36,292 nt of DNA, taken from a virus (lineage: Duplodnaviria > Heunggongvirae > Uroviricota > Caudoviricetes). Where the stretch lies: IMG/VR virus record IMGVR_UViG_2877285697_000006, positions 1 through 36,292 of that record; one strand, given 5' to 3'. Positions within the stretch are counted from its first letter, which is position 1; every line of letters starts with the position of its first letter. The translations under genes and the position numbers were made by a program. Below are positions 851-34,535 of this stretch, piece by piece. The notes under the pieces are model-generated. The model saw only the letters and a list, made by a program, of their open reading frames with translations. It was not told where the DNA came from and did no database searches.

Positions 851-973
851 ATGAAACAATTTCATGATGGCATTTCATCTAAGACATTCAAGAAAGAATA
901 TTCGCTGTGTATTAACTGGATTGATTTGATTGGTGCGGTTGTGTTTGGTCTGATTATTAGCATTAACTTTTAA
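851..973 (+). CDS. small protein (40 aa) with hydrophobic C-terminal segment
   Basis: ATG at 851 preceded by GGGTGA SD-like sequence; not in ORF track because under 60 aa; C-terminal LIGAVVFGLIISI looks like a TM helix. Confidence 0.3.
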   Translation: MKQFHDGISSKTFKKEYSLCINWIDLIGAVVFGLIISINF

Positions 974-1018
974 TGATATAAATATATCGTAATTCAAACA
1001 ACAAGAGGAAATTCTACT

Positions 1019-1438
1019 ATGAAAAAGATTATCGCTGGTGTTGTTCTTGCTCTGGGTTTGGTTGGTGCTGCGAATGCTAATACCTATACCTATTATGTGT
1101 GCAATTCCTACTTCGAATATAAAGGAGATGATACACGCTACCTGAGTGATGGCGACCGTTATTATCATGCGCCGTCTGGCAAATACCGTAGTTTTATCGG
1201 TGTAAAGGTTCGAGTGAATGATGATAATAGTCAATTTGCTTTCAACGATCCGGTATTTGATAAAACAATCAAAAGCCCAAAACTGAAAGAAGATAAGAAC
1301 GAGAAAGAAGAATATTATGGTTCCGAAGATGGTAAATCCTACATCAAATATCTGCATTCTGTAGATGGCGCGCCTATATTTGATGTTAAAAAAGGTGATA
1401 CGTCTTATTCCCTGATTAGCTGCCGTGAAATTCTTTAA
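1019..1438 (+). CDS. secreted protein with N-terminal signal peptide (139 aa)
   Basis: MKKIIAGVVLALGLVGAANA signal-like N-terminus; SD AAGAGGAAA 7 nt upstream; antisense ORF 875..1357 judged spurious. Confidence 0.6.
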   Translation: MKKIIAGVVLALGLVGAANANTYTYYVCNSYFEYKGDDTRYLSDGDRYYHAPSGKYRSFIGVKVRVNDDNSQFAFNDPVFDKTIKSPKLKEDKNEKEEYYGSEDGKSYIKYLHSVDGAPIFDVKKGDTSYSLISCREIL

Positions 1439-13671: not shown

Positions 13672-14013
13672 TTAACCGCTTCTGAGTTTCTCAAGCAAAG
13701 ATGGATCAAACATGTTCAGCATTGCCGCTTTACGTTCTTCTTCTTTCTTGCGTGCAATTTCTTCCAGTTCTTCTTTAGTTTTAAAGAGTTTTTCTTCTCT
13801 AATTAATTGGAATTGGCTAGGCTTGAGTTTGCGTGCAGTTTCGCGTGTCATTCCTTGCGACGTCATATACATGGAATATTGCAACATCGCATTCTGCATA
13901 TCATGAAACGCGGGGCTTTGTGGTTCTAAGTAGGTGTCGAAAATGTATAATTTCCAAAACAGAGTGATTGGCATATTATCCATTTCATCTTTACTAAGCC
14001 CCGATCTCATCAT
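13672..14013 (-). CDS. tail assembly chaperone T segment (likely made only as G-T fusion by -1 frameshift)
   Basis: No SD before its ATG; frame is -1 relative to G and open from 14058. Confidence 0.5.
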   Translation of the reverse strand: MMRSGLSKDEMDNMPITLFWKLYIFDTYLEPQSPAFHDMQNAMLQYSMYMTSQGMTRETARKLKPSQFQLIREEKLFKTKEELEEIARKKEEERKAAMLNMFDPSLLEKLRSG

Positions 14014-14042: not shown

Positions 14043-14351
14043 TTACTTTACCTCGTTTTCAATTACTACCGCATCTTGCATCAATGACGCTTGAGCAACC
14101 AAACCGATTAATTCACTGCGGACGTTAGTATACAGTGCCTTAACTTGTTCCATAGATTCAAATACCGGCTTACCGTCTTCATCTTCAATACAACGAAGAA
14201 TAGAACGTTCATCACGGTCATCTTTATCAGTATTGAAAACATGTTCGTTAAATTCTTTTACCGACATAGGGCGAGCATAGAAAGTAAATCCACCGATGGT
14301 CAGAGATTCACGTTTCGGAGAAAGAGCTTTCAGCATTTCATTAATATTCAT
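14043..14351 (-). CDS. tail assembly chaperone, gpG-like
   Basis: 102 aa, directly upstream of T segment and tape measure; conserved G/GT architecture. Confidence 0.55.
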   Translation of the reverse strand: MNINEMLKALSPKRESLTIGGFTFYARPMSVKEFNEHVFNTDKDDRDERSILRCIEDEDGKPVFESMEQVKALYTNVRSELIGLVAQASLMQDAVVIENEVK

Positions 14352-14393: not shown

Positions 14394-14900
14394 TTAAGAG
14401 ATTTTCAAAGTCTGCTTAGTGCCAGTCTTCTTAATGTTATTGAGGAAAGCAGCCGGAGGATTGCTTAACCAATAGTAATGAAAACCACTTTGCATACTGT
14501 TATAAGGAACAGTGACAGCCGCACCACCCAAATTAACCGTTATATTCCCCGCTCTGCCGTTCTGGAGATATACAGCCATAGTAGGAGTACCACCATTGAA
14601 TTGACCAACGATAACGCCAATTAGACGGCCTACGCCCACGTTTTCGGAGTTCTCCATTGACCCTTTACCGCGCATGTCAGTTACTGGATAGTTAGAAGCA
14701 GTTACACCCCAGTTATTACCCAATGAAGTAGACCACGCAGCAGTAGCTACAACCGTATCCATACCACGACCAGCCATTGCCGACATATTACGCGGAGCCG
14801 GAACTTTTAAAGCTGTTAATGCTTCTTTCATCCATCGCTTACCCGTCACCGATACAGCAGATGACCCGATCCAGCCAGGAACTTTAACGACATTTGCCAT
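14394..14900 (-). CDS. tail protein (major tail or tail terminator candidate)
   Basis: 168 aa, SD GGAG upstream, immediately upstream of G/T. Confidence 0.4.
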   Translation of the reverse strand: MANVVKVPGWIGSSAVSVTGKRWMKEALTALKVPAPRNMSAMAGRGMDTVVATAAWSTSLGNNWGVTASNYPVTDMRGKGSMENSENVGVGRLIGVIVGQFNGGTPTMAVYLQNGRAGNITVNLGGAAVTVPYNSMQSGFHYYWLSNPPAAFLNNIKKTGTKQTLKIS

Positions 14901-14914
14901 TTTGATTACTCCAA

Positions 14915-14943
14915 TAAAAAAGCCCCACCATTAAGGCAGGGCT
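14915..14943 (-). terminator. rho-independent terminator (AGCCCUGCC-uuaau-GGUGGGGCU + U6), shared with the MCP locus
   Basis: 9-bp stem including GU pairs, followed by TTTTTT on the minus strand; near-identical to 20862-20888. Confidence 0.6.
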
Positions 14944-14948
14944 TAAAA

Positions 14949-15074
14949 TTAATTCTTAGCCTTGCGGCCTCGTTTTGCTGTGGCTTTCGCCGTAACTTCT
15001 TCTACTTCTGGAATCACCACCGCTTCATGTTCTGGTAGTAGTTCCGGTTCTATTAAAGGAAGTTCTTCGTTAGT
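14949..15074 (-). other. 41-codon in-frame open extension after the UGA stop of the upstream gene (possible readthrough extension)
   Basis: Translates TNEELPLIEPELLPEHEAVVIPEVEEVTAKATAKRGRKAKN; no start codon; homologous to the extension after the MCP gene. Confidence 0.4.
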
Positions 15075-15545
15075 TCATCCAGCGGTAAACACTTCCTGTT
15101 TGATCGGCTTTCCATCCACCGCGAAGGTGAACTCTTTGGTTACAACTTCTTCATCGCCACCGTTCATAGCAACTTTAGAAATAAAGCCGTTGAAAGCGGT
15201 GCGAATACCAGTCTGCTTATCCGCTGATACGTAATACTCTACTTTAATCTGGATTCGAGTACCATCTTCGGCAGCTTTGATCAATTTTTCGTGGACACTA
15301 TCCCCGGGGATGTAATTCACCGTAAGAGTCAGATCAGGAACATTCAGTTTACCTACCAGCTTACGGTTGTACTGAGAAGAGAAGGATTTAACTTCTACAG
15401 TACCGCGCTCGATAGCAGTTTCCGGGAATCCGGCGCACTCTTTAATTTCTTCGTAACCGGAGTGATCGAGAGTGGTATTAGTGGTATCCGCGTGATAGAA
15501 CAGACTTACCAGACCACCAGTAAAAATATCATTAAATTGAGACAT
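15075..15545 (-). CDS. major tail (tube) protein candidate
   Basis: 156 aa, strong codon bias, SD AAGGGG; carries the same 3' module as the MCP gene. Confidence 0.45.
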   Translation of the reverse strand: MSQFNDIFTGGLVSLFYHADTTNTTLDHSGYEEIKECAGFPETAIERGTVEVKSFSSQYNRKLVGKLNVPDLTLTVNYIPGDSVHEKLIKAAEDGTRIQIKVEYYVSADKQTGIRTAFNGFISKVAMNGGDEEVVTKEFTFAVDGKPIKQEVFTAG

Positions 15546-15601: not shown

Positions 15602-18600
15602 TTATTTAGTTGCTTTGAGTTCGGCAATCTCTTTAGTCAATGCTTCAATCTTAGCTTGATATTTGGCGTCCATTTCCTGAATAGCTTTAATAATCAAGGC
15701 ATTAACAGCAGAGTTAGAAATAGTCTTAATTGCTTCCGGTTGTTCTGGATCTTCGGTGGATTGAATACCTACTGCTTCCGGCAATACTTCCTCCAGATCC
15801 TGAGCAATAATACCGACTTCGCGTTTAATCACTGTGTCATCGGAAAGAGATTTAACTTTATCGTATGTGTAGACTTTCAGGGAGTTTACTTTCTCTAATG
15901 CGCCGTCCTGTAATTCTTCCTTGTTAATCTTCAAACGGGAGTCAGAGCGAATGTAAACATCGTTAAAGCTACCGTTGCGATGAGCATTAAAATCACCGTC
16001 CATAGTAAATTCCCAGCGTGCTTGCTGCCCGTTGGCGTTATCACCTCGCATACGGATAATACCAGTACGCCAACCGTGAGTCGAACCGCTACCCGTCCAA
16101 CCAAACTCGAAGGACTGACGATAACCAACATCACCTAAGTTACTATAGCCAGCGATAATAGGGAAATATGCACCAGACTCCTTAATACTATCCATGTTAA
16201 CCAAGAATGGAGCACGGTCACGAGTTACATCAGAGATATCGGCATAACCGAAACCGTTTTTGTTGGCAACAACAACACGACGGTTAAATGTAACACCGCC
16301 TGACGTATGGCGAACAACATTAACATTATTAGCGTAGGTATCAAGAACACCATCACCGTTTTGTTTAAATCCAGTATCACTATCGCCTAAAACAATAGAA
16401 TTTCCACCCAATCCGTTAGCAACACCAACACCAAAACCGCTATTAAACTTAGGAATGGTTGCATCCTGACTAATAGACAGTTGGGGAGCGTTAATTTTAC
16501 CGTTTACGCTAAACTCGATTGCGGTAGTACCGGGACCGCCAGCACGCTGTGTGTAGAAATGCCAGCCGCTTTCATCTGCGCATTCTAATACTTGTTTACG
16601 AGTATCATTACCCCATGCACGAATATTGAAGCTAGATTGTCCGGTATTCTTACCCCATCGCATTTGACCAGCAACTTCAAGATCACCTAAGAAATATGCC
16701 TTTAGTCCACCTGTAGCCATATTACGTTCAGTGCTGAAATGTCGGCCTTTACTGTCTTCGAGATATAGAATGTTATCACGGGCATTATTGCTGTCGCCCC
16801 AATGGTTAAACCGGAAATAGTCTCTAGATTGTCCAGCACCAGCATCAAGTGTTAAATGTTGACCTTTGATGAAAGCGTTTCCAGCGAATCGAGCGGCTTT
16901 GCTTGCACGTTCTAACGTTAATGCGTCTCCGTTACCGTCACCGCCTAATTGAACGTTACCGGAAGTTAAATCATAAATGAATGGACGGTAAGTATTCCAA
17001 CCACCAAATTTATCATTTTCAGCCGTTGACAGAAGATAAACTTTAGCGGAGTCATTACGCCAGAATGCACCATAATTGCCGTAAATCATACGAAATGCGT
17101 TATGGTTGGCAGCAACATATTCGCCGTTAGTATAAACTACTTTAGTAGATCCAGTATTCAGAGAGATTTGACCGCTTTGTTCTAAGCCAATATTGTTAGT
17201 ACCGCTATCGTTATACATCTGCATAGCGTTAGTATCGGCATTTCCATAACCAACCCAACCTTGACGCTTATTTGCACCGTTGCGAGTGTCCCAATATTCC
17301 AGATAGTTACTTTGTCCGGTTGGTCGCTGCATACGAATAGTATTAGATCCGGCATCAAAAACAGCTTTACCAGTATACATAGTGCGTCCAGTGATTCGTA
17401 GAACTTCGCTAGAATCGGTAGTGCCAGTCGCTAAACGATATACGTTACCTTGAACAGTTTCATGCCAGATTGTTTCTGCGGCTTTACTACGGAATTTACG
17501 CAGATATTTTTTACCAGTACCTGAATCGTTATTCAAACTGACAATATCATATGTTCCCTGACCGTTATTATCAAACATCAACGTTCCGGCCTTGTTTTCG
17601 GTGTTGAACATTGTAATAACACGTCCATCAGTAACACCAGTAGACGGCTTAACGAGAGTTATTTCAGGAACGTCATGTACCGTCAGTGTAACATCGTTAG
17701 TTTTACCATATTCGACAATAACGTTATCGGTATAACGACCGTAGTTAACGTAGATATCGTAGTTATCACCGGAAGTATTAACCGCAAATACTTGATGAAT
17801 ATTTTTAGCATTTCGACGATAAGCCGCAATACTAACGCCTTTCGGGTTTCCGTTGCCGCTACGAATGACGATTTCTACAAAGTCAACCTGATCATAGGAG
17901 TTAACGTTATAACCGTTACCACCGAAGATACGAAGCATTACCATTCGACCAGTTTGTGGGATCGTGGCGGTTGCGATTTTGAAATAACCGCGAGTCGCAT
18001 CACCAGCCGGAACAGACATTTTAACGTTTTTAACAAACATCTTGTCAACTTCGGCTTTGGTATATGCGCCAATTTCAGCAGGAGTCGGTTTATCCCCTTC
18101 GTGATACATTTTATAGCTAAACGCTTTTTGTCCTTCTCTATCAAAACCATAGGTTTCAACACGAGATCCACCAGACGCATAACGGAAAGTAAATCCGCGA
18201 CCGTGCGCTTTACCGGAAGAGTGAGGAACGTTAAGAGTTAGATCCATGAGTCCATCTTGACCATTGGTACGGAAAGCACCGAAGTAATTAAGATCTCTCG
18301 CGGTTGAATCTTCCAGATAGTTACCAGTCTTGCTATACAAATACGCGCCGTGATAGGTCTTTGTGTTCTTCTTGATGTAAAGAGCATCGTTAGTACCTTC
18401 AATACCATCAATTCGCTTGTTGGCGGCTGCAATCGCTGCGTCGGCACTGGCCTTGTTATTTGCAACAGTTCGTTCAATGGCTGTCTTATTCGCAGAGACC
18501 GTACTAGTAAGACTGGTGATCTTCGTGTCCGCGTCTTTCTTATTATCGGAAACAGTTTTTTCGATCGCTGTCTTGTTCGCGGAGACAGTACCCGTTAAAC

Positions 18601-19210
18601 TAGAAATTTTATTATCAGCGTCGGTTTTATTCGCGGTAACAGTCTTAGTTAAATTGCTAACATTGGTGTTGGTAGCATCGACTCGCGCGTTAGTATTGGT
18701 ATTGTTGGTGTTAACGGTATTAGTAAGAGTAGTGATCTTACTGTCTGCATCTTTCTTATTGTTCGCGACGGTAGTCTCAATCGCTGATTTGTTCGATGCA
18801 ACGGTGTTAGTTAAGCTGGTGATCTTAGTATCAGCATCAGCTTTATTCGCCGTTACCGTCTTAGTTAAGTTGCTAACATTGGTGTTGGTAGCATCAATGC
18901 GCTTATTGGTTGCGGTGTCTTTAGTGGTAATAGTCTGATTCAGTTCAGATTTAGCAGCAGCCAGATTATTAGCGGCTTCTTGTTTGTTGGAAGAAATAAC
19001 ACGGTCAGTGTTGGTTTTATTCTGGTCTACTTTCGTGTTAAGTTCAGCGTGTTTTTCTGGAGAAACACTAATTTGGACTACGTTATTATTTTTGTCTTTG
19101 GTGTAAATCACATGGTCCGCCAGTTGTAAAGCGATCTCACCCTGTGATAATTGTTCCGGCGTTGGTTTTTTACCAGCCGTTTGTGTGCGTTTAAATTGGA
19201 TCGATTTCAT
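15602..19210 (-). CDS. tail fibre protein with C-terminal intramolecular chaperone (peptidase S74-type) domain
   Basis: 1202 aa; ~33-aa repeats (TKTVTANKxDADxKISSLT...); C-terminus SDSRLKINKEELQDGALEKVNSLKVYTYDK...GIIAQDLEEVLPEAV fits the auto-cleaving chaperone motif. Confidence 0.8.
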   Translation of the reverse strand: MKSIQFKRTQTAGKKPTPEQLSQGEIALQLADHVIYTKDKNNNVVQISVSPEKHAELNTKVDQNKTNTDRVISSNKQEAANNLAAAKSELNQTITTKDTATNKRIDATNTNVSNLTKTVTANKADADTKITSLTNTVASNKSAIETTVANNKKDADSKITTLTNTVNTNNTNTNARVDATNTNVSNLTKTVTANKTDADNKISSLTGTVSANKTAIEKTVSDNKKDADTKITSLTSTVSANKTAIERTVANNKASADAAIAAANKRIDGIEGTNDALYIKKNTKTYHGAYLYSKTGNYLEDSTARDLNYFGAFRTNGQDGLMDLTLNVPHSSGKAHGRGFTFRYASGGSRVETYGFDREGQKAFSYKMYHEGDKPTPAEIGAYTKAEVDKMFVKNVKMSVPAGDATRGYFKIATATIPQTGRMVMLRIFGGNGYNVNSYDQVDFVEIVIRSGNGNPKGVSIAAYRRNAKNIHQVFAVNTSGDNYDIYVNYGRYTDNVIVEYGKTNDVTLTVHDVPEITLVKPSTGVTDGRVITMFNTENKAGTLMFDNNGQGTYDIVSLNNDSGTGKKYLRKFRSKAAETIWHETVQGNVYRLATGTTDSSEVLRITGRTMYTGKAVFDAGSNTIRMQRPTGQSNYLEYWDTRNGANKRQGWVGYGNADTNAMQMYNDSGTNNIGLEQSGQISLNTGSTKVVYTNGEYVAANHNAFRMIYGNYGAFWRNDSAKVYLLSTAENDKFGGWNTYRPFIYDLTSGNVQLGGDGNGDALTLERASKAARFAGNAFIKGQHLTLDAGAGQSRDYFRFNHWGDSNNARDNILYLEDSKGRHFSTERNMATGGLKAYFLGDLEVAGQMRWGKNTGQSSFNIRAWGNDTRKQVLECADESGWHFYTQRAGGPGTTAIEFSVNGKINAPQLSISQDATIPKFNSGFGVGVANGLGGNSIVLGDSDTGFKQNGDGVLDTYANNVNVVRHTSGGVTFNRRVVVANKNGFGYADISDVTRDRAPFLVNMDSIKESGAYFPIIAGYSNLGDVGYRQSFEFGWTGSGSTHGWRTGIIRMRGDNANGQQARWEFTMDGDFNAHRNGSFNDVYIRSDSRLKINKEELQDGALEKVNSLKVYTYDKVKSLSDDTVIKREVGIIAQDLEEVLPEAVGIQSTEDPEQPEAIKTISNSAVNALIIKAIQEMDAKYQAKIEALTKEIAELKATK
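18430..18960. repeat. tandem ~99-bp DNA repeats inside the tail fibre gene
   Basis: Repeated units visible on the DNA; produces low-complexity antisense ORFs. Confidence 0.6.
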
Positions 19211-19291: not shown

Positions 19292-20125
19292 TTAGTATTC
19301 GCCGAAATCGATCCGGTCAGTCTTAGCCACTGCGCCAATTTCGGCTGGCGTTGGTTTCTCATTAGTGGAATATACCTTGATCCATTCAGAGCGACCGTTT
19401 TCCTGAATATTTCGGACGCGTAAACGTGGTGCGCCAGAAGTATTACAGGTTAATTGCCATGCGCCATGCTCATTAGCTTGAAGGTGAATTAATGCTGTGT
19501 CGGTTGAATATGGATTACCGCTAGCAGTTCCCTTGTAAGTTACGAAACGGTTTCCGGCTAAAGCATCACTATCAATCGGACCTGTGAATGGATGTACACC
19601 TGCACCTACGCCATAATCCCCGCGACGGAGAAGACGACCCTCCGTTGCAATACCGCGATCCAGAATCCCGCCATCTGGTTCAAGTTTAAATTCCAGTGTT
19701 ACAGCTTTGTTATCTGCGCCACGGGTTTTATGTGATGTGACGTAAGCATCGAATATACAAAAGTACCCTGTGTTAGCAGCACTATAGCCAGAGTTCACAA
19801 CATAGAACATACGGAAGCGTAAAGGTGTTTTATCCTCTACCGCTTTCATCAACATTGCTTGATGTTCATCGTCAAGAACACGGTTTAATGTGAGTGTTGT
19901 CGGTTCCAGTCTACGATAACCAGCAAGTTTCCCCGTAGCGTCCTGATCGTACTCTTCCAGAGTTTCTATCTCTGTGGATTCGGTTAGCGTAGGGAATGCT
20001 GCGATGTTCTCCATAGAACTAAAGCTAGGATCGAAAAAGTCGACCTGATTGGTAAGCTGATCAGAGATTGAAATCTCTACATGGCTTCCAGTAAAAATTC
20101 CTAAGTTATCATGCGTAATATTCAT
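19292..20125 (-). CDS. structural protein sharing a KPTPAEIGA motif with the tail fibre
   Basis: 277 aa; C-terminal NEKPTPAEIGAVAKTDRIDF matches motifs in the 1202-aa fibre; SD AAGGGG. Confidence 0.4.
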   Translation of the reverse strand: MNITHDNLGIFTGSHVEISISDQLTNQVDFFDPSFSSMENIAAFPTLTESTEIETLEEYDQDATGKLAGYRRLEPTTLTLNRVLDDEHQAMLMKAVEDKTPLRFRMFYVVNSGYSAANTGYFCIFDAYVTSHKTRGADNKAVTLEFKLEPDGGILDRGIATEGRLLRRGDYGVGAGVHPFTGPIDSDALAGNRFVTYKGTASGNPYSTDTALIHLQANEHGAWQLTCNTSGAPRLRVRNIQENGRSEWIKVYSTNEKPTPAEIGAVAKTDRIDFGEY

Positions 20126-20831: not shown

Positions 20832-20861
20832 AGTTACCCCCTTTATGGAGTATTTACATAC

Positions 20862-20888
20862 AAAAAAGCCCCACCGTTAGGCAGGGCT
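20862..20888 (-). terminator. rho-independent terminator after the MCP locus (same hairpin as 14915-14943)
   Basis: AGCCCUGCC-uaac-GGUGGGGCU followed by U6 on the minus strand. Confidence 0.6.
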
Positions 20889-20893
20889 AATTA

Positions 20894-20980
20894 TTATTTT
20901 GCTTTCGGTGGACGTCCCACCTTTTTAGCTGTGGCTTTCGCCGTAATCACCGGAATTTCTTCCGGCGATTCTTCGTTATT
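20894..20980 (-). other. 28-codon in-frame open extension after the MCP UGA stop (possible readthrough extension)
   Basis: Translates NNEESPEEIPVITAKATAKKVGRPPKAK; contains the 20-nt segment ACGGCGAAAGCCACAGC(A/T)AAA shared with 14949-15074. Confidence 0.4.
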
Positions 20981-21940
20981 TCATTCGCCGATCTGGAGAA
21001 CTTTAAGAGCTTCCGGCTGTACTACAGTGAAGTCAATGTCCAGCCAGATTCTAGGCACGATCGCAGACTGGGCGCGGTACGTTGAATCGTCCAGATCTAG
21101 CTCAAGACCGCCCCACTCACCGATCATGATGCCGCTGTAATCGCCCAGCACGATCGTGTCAGCTGGAATAACACCGGAAGTAATTACATCGTAACCAGCC
21201 AGTTTGCCGTTTTCGATGATATAACCGGAAACGCCGTTATCTTTCAGGGTAGATTCCAGTTCAGCAGCAGTTGCACCGCTCATTGCAAACTTGATGGACT
21301 GTGCCGGAACGCCAGCGTCCGTAAGCTGAGCAATCTCCTTGAGGAAGTCTTTGTAAGAGAAAGCGGCTTTCTTAGTAACGCGACCACCGTCTACCAGTTG
21401 CTTAACCAGACCTTTCGGACCGCGCTCGTTGTCTTTGTCAGACAGAATCAGTTGTTCCAGTTTGATCCGAACAGATTTGTTAATGTGATCAGTGATCAGG
21501 GTAGCGATGCCCGGAACGGTTTTGAGGCTAGCCCTAGAAATTGGGTTCCCGCCTGCGAAAGTTTTCGGAGCCATTTTCACGTTTTCAAAGCTAGCCTTCG
21601 ATTCGGGGGCACTTCCATTTTCATCAACAAAACCAAAGGCTTCGACGCTGGAAGCAGTCATTTTTGGTACTGCAATCGGGCTATTCAGACCAGACAGAAC
21701 AGTCACACCCAGACGACCCAGAACAGACTGTGGAAGCAGCATTTCAACATAGGATTCGGTCAGCAGTTTTTCGTCGGTTACAGCTTCCAGAGTAGCTTTG
21801 GTGTTACCAGCAGAAGCAGCACGCAGAGCAGCAGCCGGAACGAATACAGAGCCACCACGAGCAGCACCGACCACGCTGCATTGCAGCACCAGCAGCCATT
21901 GCGGAATATTCAGCTTCATGAGCACCCAGAGTTTCACCAT
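20981..21940 (-). CDS. major capsid protein (HK97 fold); N-terminus probably supplied by the upstream protease-scaffold ORF
   Basis: 319-aa ORF with strong codon bias and capsid-like sequence; no SD before its ATG; MCP frame has a TGA immediately upstream. Confidence 0.75.
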   Translation of the reverse strand: MVKLWVLMKLNIPQWLLVLQCSVVGAARGGSVFVPAAALRAASAGNTKATLEAVTDEKLLTESYVEMLLPQSVLGRLGVTVLSGLNSPIAVPKMTASSVEAFGFVDENGSAPESKASFENVKMAPKTFAGGNPISRASLKTVPGIATLITDHINKSVRIKLEQLILSDKDNERGPKGLVKQLVDGGRVTKKAAFSYKDFLKEIAQLTDAGVPAQSIKFAMSGATAAELESTLKDNGVSGYIIENGKLAGYDVITSGVIPADTIVLGDYSGIMIGEWGGLELDLDDSTYRAQSAIVPRIWLDIDFTVVQPEALKVLQIGE

Positions 21941-22985
21941 CGATCAGGGAGCGGAATACGTTGTTCAGGTCAAAAGTTTTTTCCATGATTTGTTCCTTAT
22001 TAATTTGTTCGTTATTACGTTGAGCATTGATAATGTTATTTAGTGCCTTAGTGCGGAATGCTTCCGGCGTCATGTCTTTAACTGCCAATGCGCGTTTTAA
22101 TTCTTCGTCGTCAATATTTAGTTCCCGCGCGATCTCGCGAATTTCTAATTCGTCTTCTTCGGAACGTTCAGCCACTTCTTCGATTTTTTCTTCTTCAACC
22201 GGAGCGGCTTCACGTTCTTCTTTTACTTCTTCTGCTTCCCGAACAGTTGAACTATCATCATCAACACTTTCAGGATGTTCAGCGACTTTTCCGTCTTCGA
22301 GATTTTCATTTTCTTCATTCTCTTCAACTTGGCGCTCTTGAGTTTCTTCAACTTTCGGTTCTTTATTTTCTTCTACCGGAGTTTCTTCAACCTGAGCGGG
22401 TTCTTGTTCTTCTTTGATTTCTTCGATTTGTTCTTTAGTCATATCGCGTTTAGCCTCCAAATTAACTGTGATAGTATTTAGAGAGCGATTTAAACCGACC
22501 GTATCGTCAGCAGGAACGGTAACGAAACTTAATTCGTATGGTGCCCACTTAGTAACAATCAATTGCCCTTTGGCGTAATCGATGTGATATTCTTTAATGT
22601 CATAGCCGACAGAAATTTTTTCCATCGTACCTTCAATGACTTTATTACGAACATCATTAGCCAAAGTGCCATGTTTAGAGAATTTAACCAGAGCACGGCC
22701 TACGTTATCCGCATCGATTCGAGCGTCGCAGACTACACCTAAATGATTATCGAAATTATGATTGAACAGCAACGGAGCGTTATTATTCAGACGAGACAGA
22801 TCAACCGCTTCCGGTGTATGTACCAGAATTTCATCTAATACCACCATTTCTTGATTTTGCTCATCCCAAAATTGGCGCTGATAAGGCTGTGTACTTGAGA
22901 AAGCAATTTCAAATTCGTATTGATCGTTATGCCCTTCGTTAATAACTCCACCGTAACCGTTAAGATCGCGGCGAAATTTAAGCAT
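21804..22985 (-). CDS. prohead protease (HK97 S78-type) fused to acidic coiled-coil scaffold domain
   Basis: N-terminal ~180 aa with LLFNHNFDNHLG-type protease motifs, then glutamate-rich region; 3' end (RCCSWWLCIRSGCCSACCFCW) looks like out-of-frame translation of the MCP start. Confidence 0.7.
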   Translation of the reverse strand: MLKFRRDLNGYGGVINEGHNDQYEFEIAFSSTQPYQRQFWDEQNQEMVVLDEILVHTPEAVDLSRLNNNAPLLFNHNFDNHLGVVCDARIDADNVGRALVKFSKHGTLANDVRNKVIEGTMEKISVGYDIKEYHIDYAKGQLIVTKWAPYELSFVTVPADDTVGLNRSLNTITVNLEAKRDMTKEQIEEIKEEQEPAQVEETPVEENKEPKVEETQERQVEENEENENLEDGKVAEHPESVDDDSSTVREAEEVKEEREAAPVEEEKIEEVAERSEEDELEIREIARELNIDDEELKRALAVKDMTPEAFRTKALNNIINAQRNNEQINKEQIMEKTFDLNNVFRSLIDGETLGAHEAEYSAMAAGAAMQRGRCCSWWLCIRSGCCSACCFCW

Positions 22986-33241: not shown

Positions 33242-34535
33242 CTGAGGAATCCCCAGAAAACAAGACAGGCATAGTGAGATGTGATCTAATTGATTGTGCT
33301 AACAATTTCAAGGAGATCACCACTATGCCTGCACGTTCATTATGCCAAAATTTCCTTAACAACATACTGGCCCCTTTGCATCTTTACCGTCAAAAATCAC
33401 TGATTGACGCAACTAATGCTGTAATAAATGGCGCTTCCCTCACACTTACCAGTATCGGGCGTCATTTAACCGGTACGGCATCAGTTAAAAACAAAATAAA
33501 GCGGGTGGATCGACTGTTGGGGAATCGACATTTGCAAAATGAGGTTTCCACCATTTTTCAGCGAATTACCCAAAAGATTACGCGGGGAATGTCTCGTGTT
33601 GTGATACTCATTGACTGGAGTGCTTATCATGCCTCTCGTTTTCAGCTTTTGCGGGCAAGCCTGGCATGTGACGGGCGTTCTTTACCGTTGATGAGTTGTG
33701 TCGTTCCATCATCACAGACAGCGAATGCAGATGTACATGAGCGTTTTCTGGAATCGCTTGCTGAGTGCTTTTCCCCCGGGACTGATGTCATTGTTATTAC
33801 AGATGCCGGTTTTCAGGGGCGATGGTTCCAACAGCTCCGCTCCCGTGGCTGGACCTATATTTGCCGGGTACTGGGCAATCATTATTACAATGTTGGTAAT
33901 GGCTGGGAAAAGGTGTCGGACTCAGGCACAAAAGCATCAACGACAGCAATTTATTTAGGTGAAGGCCTGCTGGGTCGAGATAAAAATGCACAACATGAAG
34001 GGCATTTTTATCTTTATAAAAGTAAGCCTAAAGGTCGTAGATTTAAACGCTCGAAGGAAAGAGCAACCAGACCATCGGTGACGGCTAAAGCTCGTACTGC
34101 CGGGAAATCACCATGGTTTATTTTCACAAACAGTACTGAGTTATCGCCAAAACAGGTAATGAAATTATACAGCCGTAGAATGCAAATTGAGCAAAATTTC
34201 AGGGATGAAAAAAATCCTCGCTGGGGATTTGGACTACGGTTTGGTGCCAGTCATTCATCCGGGCGGGTCACGGTATTGAGTCTGAGCGCAACATTAGCCA
34301 GTATCATTATGTGGTTAAGCGGTTTCAGCCTGGAAAACAAAGGGATACATCATAAATATCAGGCAAATACAGTGAAGCACAGGCGAGTCATCTCGCTATT
34401 AAAACTGGCGGAGAATGTGATTCGACATTCTCCACTCATACTAAACACACTGTCACTTGACGCAGGGCTGAAAGTTCTACAGCAACGGTATACCAATATG
34501 ATAATGGTTTACTAAATTTTCTGGGGATCCCTCAG
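33242..34535 (+). mobile_element. IS10-like insertion sequence (IS4 family), about 1.29 kb
   Basis: Terminal inverted repeats CTGAGGAATCCCCAGAAAA (left) and CTGAGGGATCCCCAGAAAA (right, reverse complement), 19/19 with 1 mismatch; flanking direct repeat GGGTGATTCC at 33232-33241 and 34536-34545 (9-bp TSD with 1-bp ambiguity). Confidence 0.85.
33325..34515 (+). CDS. IS10-type DDE transposase
   Basis: N-terminal region ...KNKIKRVDRLLGNRHL closely matches the IS10 transposase as recalled (IKRIDRLLGNRHL); SD AAGGAG; start at MPARSL rather than track start 33274. Confidence 0.85.
   Translation: MPARSLCQNFLNNILAPLHLYRQKSLIDATNAVINGASLTLTSIGRHLTGTASVKNKIKRVDRLLGNRHLQNEVSTIFQRITQKITRGMSRVVILIDWSAYHASRFQLLRASLACDGRSLPLMSCVVPSSQTANADVHERFLESLAECFSPGTDVIVITDAGFQGRWFQQLRSRGWTYICRVLGNHYYNVGNGWEKVSDSGTKASTTAIYLGEGLLGRDKNAQHEGHFYLYKSKPKGRRFKRSKERATRPSVTAKARTAGKSPWFIFTNSTELSPKQVMKLYSRRMQIEQNFRDEKNPRWGFGLRFGASHSSGRVTVLSLSATLASIIMWLSGFSLENKGIHHKYQANTVKHRRVISLLKLAENVIRHSPLILNTLSLDAGLKVLQQRYTNMIMVY

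Follow-up and report, generated by a model that had tools for sequence, protein, structure and literature searches.

Two kinds of recoding are among the closest described systems. In Q-beta, UGA read-through makes the A1 protein at a level of about 5% (PMC7026636, Table 1), and the same recoding review lists Q-beta as the only case of read-through in viruses of bacteria (PMC7026636). Extensions of structural proteins in tailed phages are reviewed as products of frameshifting only (PMC5009743), and in several of these phages both the major capsid gene and the major tail gene are affected (PMC5009743, PMC8718954). In lambda gpV, residues 1-156 form the tube domain and the C-terminal immunoglobulin-like (Ig) domain lies on the exterior (PMC8718954). 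In our full-text literature search, no paper was found that describes read-through for the capsid or tail genes of tailed phages. Here we analyze IMG/VR virus record IMGVR_UViG_2877285697_000006, positions 1 to 36,292 (the whole stretch is called the window below), a temperate siphophage genome of ~36 kb and 42% G+C that is an E. coli prophage. Its major capsid gene and its major tail (tube) gene both end in a UGA codon followed by A, and behind each of these stops an in-frame extension stays open to a second, strong stop just before an intrinsic terminator. Comparison with relatives suggests that near-cognate read-through of the two UGA codons probably gives a minor, C-terminally extended isoform of each protein.

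Both loci are encoded on the minus strand. At the capsid locus, the order of TGA, open extension, tandem stop and terminator is the one proposed in a first-pass annotation of this DNA, which was made from the sequence without database searches (Table 1). The annotation had also claimed that the capsid and tail loci have a segment and a terminator in common, and our analysis bears this out. An identical 17-nucleotide (nt) core, ACGGCGAAAGCCACAGC, occurs exactly twice in the window, once in each extension and both times on the minus strand, with 0 occurrences expected by chance. The two terminators are near-identical and belong to a direct-repeat family, and in a 10-kb scan (13.5-23.5 kb) they were the two best terminator-like sites, the tail-tube locus ranking first and the capsid locus second. 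The window's other clearly assigned minus-strand late genes, from endolysin to terminase, stop at TAA. The annotation further argued that two such in-frame extensions are unlikely to arise by chance. For the window by itself this argument fails: under shuffling, the probability of finding no stop was 0.27-0.39 over the 28 capsid codons and 0.08-0.10 over the 41 tail codons, so the open frames are not significant there and the claim has to rest on comparison with relatives. Across relatives the argument holds, through an invariant TGA-A, an open frame and length changes in triplets, as described below.

The product of the capsid gene is an HK97-type major capsid protein (TIGR01554, 68.9 bits against a cut-off of 27.5; PF05065 (Phage_capsid), 90 bits; a match to phrog_617), and the protease part of the gene has a Pfam Peptidase_S78 match. 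The 319-amino-acid (aa) frame that the first-pass annotation took for the native capsid gene turned out to be a frameshift artefact. One extra G at position 21868, on the minus strand (GCGTGGTC[G]GTGCTGCTCGT; also given as GCGTGGTC[G]GTGC), breaks the fusion gene into two overlapping open reading frames (ORFs), 21804-22985 and 20981-21940. The extra G is missing from 6 of 6 relatives aligned, in which protease, linker and capsid domain form one ORF of ~668 aa (relative L037 has a fused coding sequence of 668 aa), and its in-silico deletion from the window gives a 667-aa ORF without a stop. Either the extra G is an error of sequencing or it inactivates the gene, and in the second case the prophage would be defective. 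The 156-aa protein at the second locus is the major tail protein, as identified by its phrog_158 match (Table 1), by synteny (its gene lies upstream of chaperone, T-like and tape-measure genes) and by the name "phage tail tube protein" that the Prokaryotic Genome Annotation Pipeline gives to the L037 homologue; its Pfam matches to TTP_11 (26.7 bits against 28.4) and TTP_12 fall just under the cut-off.

Relatives were recovered by protein-guided and DNA-pattern scans of viral contigs and metagenomes, which yielded 123 copies of the module representing 56 distinct sequences. These copies are phylogenetically related; the lineages that count as independent support number about four for the capsid gene and one for the tail-tube gene, to which the pattern of module swaps adds. 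An in-frame TGA with A as the next base is present in 123 of 123 copies; TAA, TAG and sense codons never take its place, and in-frame stops inside the extension number 0 across all 123. Capsid extensions are 28, 33, 42, 43, 44 or 45 codons long and tail extensions 36, 39, 40 or 41 codons, all in frame. The extensions are mosaics, in which a short (NNEELPEEIPVV) or a long (T-x-VEPSEPSPDLGEENLIP...) acidic part is joined to varied basic ends; these ends are KKVGRPPKAK, KKQRKTKE, KKERKTKAK, KRGRKAKN, KRSRKAKD and KRGRKPKE. The closing TAA TAA is kept in E. coli copies with a type A capsid gene, and some copies with a second capsid type (type B) have TGA TAA.

The first-pass annotation's idea of one homologous module on capsid and tail-tube genes also extends beyond the window's own gene types. 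Seven copies follow the type B capsid gene, which is 38% identical to the window's and is likewise protease-fused, which brings to three the genes that the module follows (capsid type A, capsid type B and tail-tube). It is also found behind capsid genes of Salmonella and Providencia prophages, whose products are about 47-51% identical to that of the window. The Salmonella capsid frame ends ...KAASE, followed by TGA-A, the in-frame extension TPVEPSEPLPDNGESETPSVTAKATKRGRKPKE (33 codons), TAA and a different terminator; the Providencia frame ends ...NSLPA, followed by TGA-A, TNEELPEEEPLPVATEKSTKRRKSK (25 codons), TAG and yet another terminator. We also checked whether the shared DNA segment stands at unrelated genes or in other frames. 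Among the copies recovered, it was found only 3' of capsid or tail-tube genes and always in the same frame. When one genome per species was scanned, the segment had 0 matches, and the module is absent from species-representative genomes.

The pattern of change within the extension points to a frame that is kept. Frame 0 contains no stop in any variant, and the two other forward frames contain 1-7 per variant. At least eight independent length changes are seen, all of them multiples of three (48, 27, 15-18, 6, 6, 3, 3 and 3 nt), and the chance of eight triplet-only changes is ~(1/3)^8 = 1.5e-4. The terminator loop provides an internal control, since indels of 1-2 nt occur there, after the final stop, and only there. 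The stop codon itself follows the extension: TGA accompanies its presence and TAA its absence. Capsid relatives (27-56% identity) without an in-frame extension all end in TAA, with the exception of an Edwardsiella phage, whose capsid gene has TGA-T and a tail in the -1 frame. The acidic-then-basic composition is kept across variants. The ratio of nonsynonymous to synonymous differences (pN/pS), estimated from crude pairwise counts, is 0.37 in the tail-tube extension against 0.11 in the gene body, and 0.68-0.76 in the capsid extensions, gene bodies overall having values of 0.11-0.22. These patterns are compatible with a disordered tail whose length, charge pattern and frame would matter more than its exact residues, with an added nucleotide-level constraint. 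The region seems to be under constraint at two levels, as coding sequence and as RNA. Pfam searches with the extension peptides found no domain, the nearest result being one sub-threshold AT-hook match in one variant. The likeness to AT-hooks suggested by the first-pass annotation thus narrows to a single tail variant, KKVGRPPKAK, which has a GRP core between basic residues and scores 14.3 bits against a cut-off of 17.4. The GRP core is lacking in QRKTKE, ERKTKAK, RGRKAKN, RSRKAKD, RGRKPKE and RRKSK, and the feature that is kept is a generic basic cluster.

At the RNA level, the predicted folding of the capsid 3' region is far stronger than that of shuffled sequences (z = -5.2); the z-score is -3.0 for the tail region and -6.9 for the Providencia region. 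Three small hairpins, hp1, hp2 and hp3, precede the capsid terminator, and their stems covary. Across E. coli variants and Providencia, hp1 shows two both-sided pair changes (A-U to G-C and U-A to C-G) and two one-sided changes (G-U to A-U), and the Providencia loop is 6 nt longer. A comparison of the long-variant hp1 (CUUCCCCC/GGGGGAAG) with that of Salmonella (CUCUCCCC/GGGGAGAG) shows two compensatory pairs, which change Ser to Leu and Glu to Ser; the automatic alignment misplaced the 3' arm of hp1 in this comparison, and the pairing was checked by hand. The second hairpin, hp2, is formed by the shared core, GGC-GAAA-GCC, and reads GGA-GAAA-UCC in Providencia. In GRPP tails hp3 is GGUGG/CCACC or the compensatory GGCGG/CCGCC (L019 and L020), and in other tails it is a GCAA-loop hairpin with stems GGCC/GGCU, AGCC/GGCU or AGGC/GCCU (CGAC/GUCG in Providencia). 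Rfam gave no match at gathering thresholds and, at relaxed thresholds, only weak matches that lay mostly over the terminator. At the tail-tube locus we found no conserved covarying hairpin at a fixed distance from the UGA. With its 10-nt spacer, hp1 would by our estimate begin a few nt beyond the leading edge of a ribosome that has the UGA in its A site, and because of this placement it is not an obvious classical stimulator. The hairpins may tune read-through, or they may protect a mostly untranslated 3' region.

UGA is the leakiest of the stop codons. In E. coli, a UGA with A as the next base is reported to be misread by tRNA-Trp with particular ease (PMC5289835, citing Engelberg-Kulka 1981). 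Read-through without special signals is put at ~1e-3 to 1e-2, as set by the Trp-tRNA ternary complex versus RF2 (PMC10570021). On this basis, and from the conservation described above, we consider it likely that both UGA-A codons are sites of near-cognate read-through. Most ribosomes would terminate at the weak UGA-A stop. A small fraction, which we infer to be on the order of 1% or a few percent, would decode the UGA with a near-cognate tRNA, most likely tRNA-Trp in competition with RF2. Having passed the UGA, these ribosomes would translate another 28-45 codons of the same frame and end at a strong stop (TAA TAA or TAA) just before the intrinsic terminator. The product would carry a flexible appendage made of an acidic, proline-rich spacer and a Lys/Arg-rich tip (TAKATAK-K/R-x-R-K-x-K), and a handful of tailed subunits would be present per virion, if the head is T=7 with ~415 subunits and the tube has ~180, both of which are our estimates. 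The tails would be exposed on the surface of head and tail because the C-termini of the lambda-type tube domain and of display-used HK97-fold shells face outward; C-termini of HK97-fold shells, for example that of T7 gene 10, are used for surface display. As a guess at function, and by analogy, the tails could provide weak electrostatic adhesion to an anionic envelope or to matrix polymers, or could act as stabilising elements between subunits. Among the window's other genes (serine recombinase, M15 endolysin, Rha regulator, insertion sequence (IS) transposase and tail genes), we found no recognisable phage factor that alters termination.

Several observations weigh against read-through. The tail-tube extension is dispensable in some relatives: P0013-type E. 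coli relatives, whose tail-tube protein is 73% identical, have no tail extension and carry TAA TAA right at the terminator, with capsid genes that still have TGA plus extension. No natural variant was found in which a sense codon replaces the TGA. Termination at UGA is generally regarded as more efficient in natural E. coli isolates than in K-12, and the extended isoform could be very rare for that reason. The window's own capsid copy may be defective, since its gene carries the frameshift described above, and may not make particles. Purifying selection on the peptide is weak, with pN/pS reaching the upper value of 0.76, and variable sites show no excess at third codon positions (12/17/17 and 11/8/14). 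Synonymous divergence is lower in the extension (0.13-0.19) than in the adjacent gene (0.29-0.35). Finally, several non-conservative amino-acid changes keep base pairs, which places part of the conservation at the RNA level.

A broader form of the proposal, which we advance tentatively and regard as rather unlikely, would treat the whole cassette (UGA-A, structured in-frame extension, strong stop and terminator) as a portable device for programmed read-through in tailed phages, moved by recombination between structural genes and between genera. The capsid-locus hairpin, with its base 10 nt after the UGA, would then be a cis element that tunes read-through, and the arrival of ribosomes at the terminator might couple read-through to the downstream low-copy genes. 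As far as the literature could be searched, we found no description of a natural bacterial read-through stimulator of the hp1 kind.

The alternative that survives best dispenses with translation. The region could be a structured 3' untranslated region (UTR), in which a stack of GNRA-type hairpins and the terminator stabilise abundant mRNAs, or the source of a small RNA processed from the 3' UTR, whose seed would be the 17-nt core, and the open frame would then be incidental. Compensatory changes that keep hp1, hp2 and hp3, some at the cost of non-conservative residue changes, are what such a region would show, as are the folding scores of the capsid, tail and Providencia regions, a synonymous-site divergence below that of the neighbouring gene and a 17-nt core that is identical at both loci. 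A 3' UTR leaves unexplained, however, why indels in the extension come in triplets only while the terminator loop takes indels of 1-2 nt, why the frame has no stop in 56 distinct sequences from three genera, why TGA-A goes with the extension and TAA with its lack, and why the Edwardsiella tail-tube protein encodes a similar tail in the ordinary way; it also has no Rfam match. We consider this alternative quite improbable.

We judge still less probable an attenuation-like coupling, in which a read-through ribosome would mask the 5' arm of the terminator stem and let RNA polymerase enter the low-copy genes, so that the frequency of read-through would set the ratio of abundant to rare structural proteins and the peptide itself would be irrelevant. 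The geometry is suitable, in that the extension stop lies within a few nt (2-6) of the terminator stem in E. coli, Salmonella and Providencia; extension-less genes also stop a few nt from their terminators, however, so this proximity is not special. Both loci stand at a border between a very high-copy gene and low-copy genes (those for head completion follow the capsid gene, and those for the chaperones and the tape measure follow the tube gene), but read-through at a few percent would shift termination only marginally. A conserved frame around a weakly constrained peptide would suit the coupling, whereas the design of acidic/proline spacer and Lys/Arg tip, kept through module swaps, and the constitutively fused basic tails of relatives, where coupling is impossible, do not.

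It is far-fetched that the extension is a fossil of a C-terminus truncated by a nonsense mutation, or that the UGA is decoded through selenocysteine, a reassigned code or a suppressor tRNA: some relatives have the tail within an ordinary ORF and one gene call under genetic code 4 gave a fused protein, but the DNA behind that call has a plain TGA, drift would have brought stops and frameshifts that are seen in none of three genera and two capsid types, the window has no tRNA gene, its other genes are long and intact under code 11 with no TGA inside them, no SECIS (selenocysteine insertion sequence) or other Rfam family matches, and the hairpin, with its GAAA loop, lacks the features usually described for the E. 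coli SECIS.

The code-4 call is the 198-aa "fused" tail-tube protein P0008 (relative L120, ENA contig k141_243218), which has Trp at the position of the TGA; it is an artefact of gene calling, and the caller evidently chose genetic code 4 for a short contig. An exhaustive HMMER search with P0008 gave only one homologue whose alignment spans the extension, and this is a fibre-fused protein in which the linker is unrelated. A query made of the capsid C-terminus, W and the extension gave 4 partial capsid matches, none of which reached the extension. Two other candidates were tried and rejected. One is an antisense gene in the extension: the complementary frame is open in most capsid variants and is interrupted by stops in L018, L025 and the tail locus, and we rejected it because the open antisense frame is a by-product of sense codon usage. 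The other is separate initiation within the extension, which contains no ATG and in which GTG codons are not kept (GTG ATT in the window, GTA GTT elsewhere).

Distant relatives, reached by tracing tail-tube homologues to the contigs that carry them, point to other ways of carrying a basic tail, beside the UGA read-through that we favour for the window. Many capsid relatives without an extension have a short Ala/Lys-rich C-terminus within the ORF (...AEAKSKA, ...QAKAPASK, ...KAKAPAGK, ...AEAKAAKQ). The Edwardsiella tail-tube protein carries ...PDAPLATYHMNVIPEAVAAKEK (...VIPEAVAAKEK) as ordinary coding sequence, and this resembles the E. coli ...AVVIPEVEEVTAKATAK. In capsid genes of the clade of phage DCP80 and of Edwardsiella, an acidic-to-basic tail lies in the -1 frame (IPTGREEVSVKSGRKPKTDN, TGAQAAPVRKPRALKVTK and RKAKAKAETAE; Table 1). 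There the -1 frame is open from runs of Lys codons just upstream of the stop, namely A AAA AAG in L173, A8 in L166, GAA AAG in DCP80 and GTA AAG in Edwardsiella, which suggests -1 frameshifting and makes the A-rich runs candidate sites for it at the 3' ends of these capsid genes. The -1-frame tail of L167 is lengthened by GCAAAA-type repeats. Judged from these sequences, the family appears to attach a small basic tail to its capsid and tube proteins in three ways: constitutively, by -1 frameshifting and by way of UGA.

Table 1. Positions of the two modules, their host genes and other features discussed in the text. Positions are those of the window, except in the last row, where they are those of the relatives named.
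Feature	Position	Strand	Remarks
Protease-scaffold-capsid gene	20984..22985	-	Peptidase_S78 prohead protease, acidic scaffold-like linker and HK97-type major capsid protein
Capsid UGA stop, next base A	20981..20983	-	frame ends ...LKVLQIGE; TGA-A in 71/71 capsid-locus copies
Capsid extension, 28 in-frame codons, NNEESPEEIPVITAKATAKKVGRPPKAK	20897..20980	-	acidic proline-containing spacer, then basic tail
Hairpin hp1, AAUCGCCGGAA-GAAA-UUCCGGUGAUU	20945..20970	-	base 10 nt after UGA
Shared segment ACGGCGAAAGCCACAGC (encodes TAKATA)	20928..20944	-	contains mini-hairpin hp2, GGC-GAAA-GCC
Hairpin hp3, GGUGG-GACGU-CCACC	20907..20921	-	within basic tail
Tandem TAA TAA closing capsid extension	20891..20896	-	2 nt before terminator stem
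Intrinsic terminator, capsid locus	20861..20888	-	9-bp G+C-rich stem (20888-20867), 4-nt loop, T-run
Major tail (tube) protein, 156 aa	15078..15545	-	phrog_158, E = 6.9e-22; ends ...EVFTAG
Tail-tube UGA stop, next base A	15075..15077	-	TGA-A in 52/52 tail-locus copies
Tail-tube extension, 41 in-frame codons, TNEELPLIEPELLPEHEAVVIPEVEEVTAKATAKRGRKAKN	14952..15074	-	includes shared segment at 14977-14993
Tail-tube TAA and intrinsic terminator	14914..14951	-	TAA 14951-14949; stem 14944-14920, then T-run
277-aa protein	19292..20125	-	second tail-tube-like N-terminal domain (phrog_158, E = 1e-8)
Long-tail-fibre gene, 1202 aa	15602..19210	-	DNA 74-85% identical to gp37 distal fibre genes
Two tandem 216-nt repeats	18498..18929		74% identical, inside fibre gene; third, partial copy near 18992
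gp38-type adhesin gene	14394..14900	-	flanks tail-tube gene on side opposite fibre gene
Tail assembly chaperone	14043..14351	-	TAC_13-like
Phage_tail_T-like ORF	13672..14013	-	
160-aa ORF	875..1357	-	no family match; ends TGA-A
DDE-type transposase gene (IS element)	33274..34515		early/regulatory part of prophage
-1-frame tails at capsid 3' ends	L001 (phage DCP80) 7760-7930; L166, L167, L172, L173; L121 2760-2870		

Besides the genes already named, the window encodes a serine recombinase, a Rha regulator, an M15 endolysin, terminase, portal, a lambda J-like tip protein and the tape measure. Of 5,426 complete E. coli genomes, 55 carry a related prophage; E. coli CUVET21-37, BS74R-D and O55:H7 DEC5A are examples of strains with a member of the family whose capsid gene is intact. 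No close relative was found among 50,697 deposited phage genomes, the best being DCP80 with 40% capsid identity, and the phage collection holds no characterised phage from the window's family. The DCP80 record (L001, PQ671644.1) is filed under Straboviridae/Tevenvirinae/Gaprivervirus, and its first 23 kb are a siphophage-type module related to this prophage family, with a fused protease-capsid, a lambda-like tube protein and a J-like tip; the record may be chimeric or misclassified. The IS element in the early/regulatory part of the window, together with the capsid frameshift, hints that this prophage copy is decaying.

The region around the tail-tube gene also carries fibre genes. The gp37 matches of the long-tail-fibre gene come from the virulent T4-like Krischvirus phages RB49, Phi1 and Cognac, and together with the gp38-type adhesin gene it is a receptor-binding cassette common to a temperate siphophage and T-even-type myophages. 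At the same place, the relatives L037, L121 and L123 have different fibre cassettes. The 216-nt repeats inside the fibre gene are likely to encode repeated structural domains. Just upstream of the fibre gene, the 277-aa protein has a second tail-tube-like N-terminal domain, and many remote homologues of the tube protein are 700-1500 aa long and join a tube-like domain to long fibre-like regions, which suggests a tube-fold collar that anchors side fibres. The tail assembly chaperone gene and the Phage_tail_T-like ORF lie upstream of the tape-measure gene in the usual G/GT arrangement, and from this arrangement the phage probably also uses the classical -1 frameshift. The 160-aa ORF near the start of the window is followed, after its TGA-A, by 30 open in-frame codons (NAIMKLFHCSPHTNDNIRKTNHGCETTSHE), a post-stop sequence unlike that of the capsid or tail module.

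If read-through takes place as proposed, this prophage would be the first tailed double-stranded DNA (dsDNA) phage candidate for it. The case is unusually clean, in that the same module stands on capsid and tube genes and is kept in prophages of E. coli, Salmonella and Providencia, and in that a similar tail seems to be made in sister lineages by other means, -1 frameshifting or direct fusion. Together these lineages offer a natural series for asking why phages would want a few decorated subunits per virion and how the mode of recoding is exchanged, and the hairpins bear on whether downstream RNA structure can tune bacterial read-through. Annotation pipelines would be truncating these proteins, and the code-4 call P0008 illustrates a route by which a read-through ORF enters protein databases as an artefact. 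The extension would also mark a natural low-copy display site on the head and tail of an E. coli phage.

The module resembles the coat/A1 system of Q-beta in being a single UGA at the end of a capsid gene of an E. coli virus, at which near-cognate read-through of a few percent would give a minor extended isoform with no need for a dedicated trans-acting factor. The Q-beta extension is reportedly a folded domain of roughly 200 aa that is required for infectivity. Q-beta is a small single-stranded RNA levivirus, whereas the virus here is a tailed dsDNA prophage and the extension a putative low-complexity tail of 28-45 aa; here, moreover, the same module sits on two or three structural genes and ends at a transcription terminator. 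The 156-aa tail-tube protein equals the N-terminal tube domain of lambda gpV in length, and like the gpV Ig-like domain and the 80-alpha C-arm the extension would be an appendage on the C-terminus of a ~156-aa tube domain, at the outer face (PMC8718954); many remote tail-tube homologues likewise have long C-terminal additions. In gpV and 80-alpha, however, the addition is a folded domain or an ordered arm present on every subunit, unlike the stop-codon-gated and probably disordered appendage proposed here. In purpose and in the genes targeted, the closest parallels are the long forms made by frameshifting in T7/T3 (10A/10B), Lactobacillus phage A2, Listeria phages PSA, A118 and A500, and SPP1 (gp17.1*), which are minor, C-terminally extended capsid or tail isoforms, and the DCP80 clade and the Edwardsiella phage appear to place their tail in the -1 frame behind slippery A-runs. 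Here the extension lies in frame 0 directly after TGA, not in the +1 or -1 frame, it encodes a short charged peptide without a Pfam domain, not an Ig-like or FN3 domain, and a near-identical 3' cassette, terminator included, stands on both genes. In its proposed role, the tail would be an analogue of the non-essential Ig and FN3 decorations that frameshifting adds in SPP1, A2, PSA and T7.

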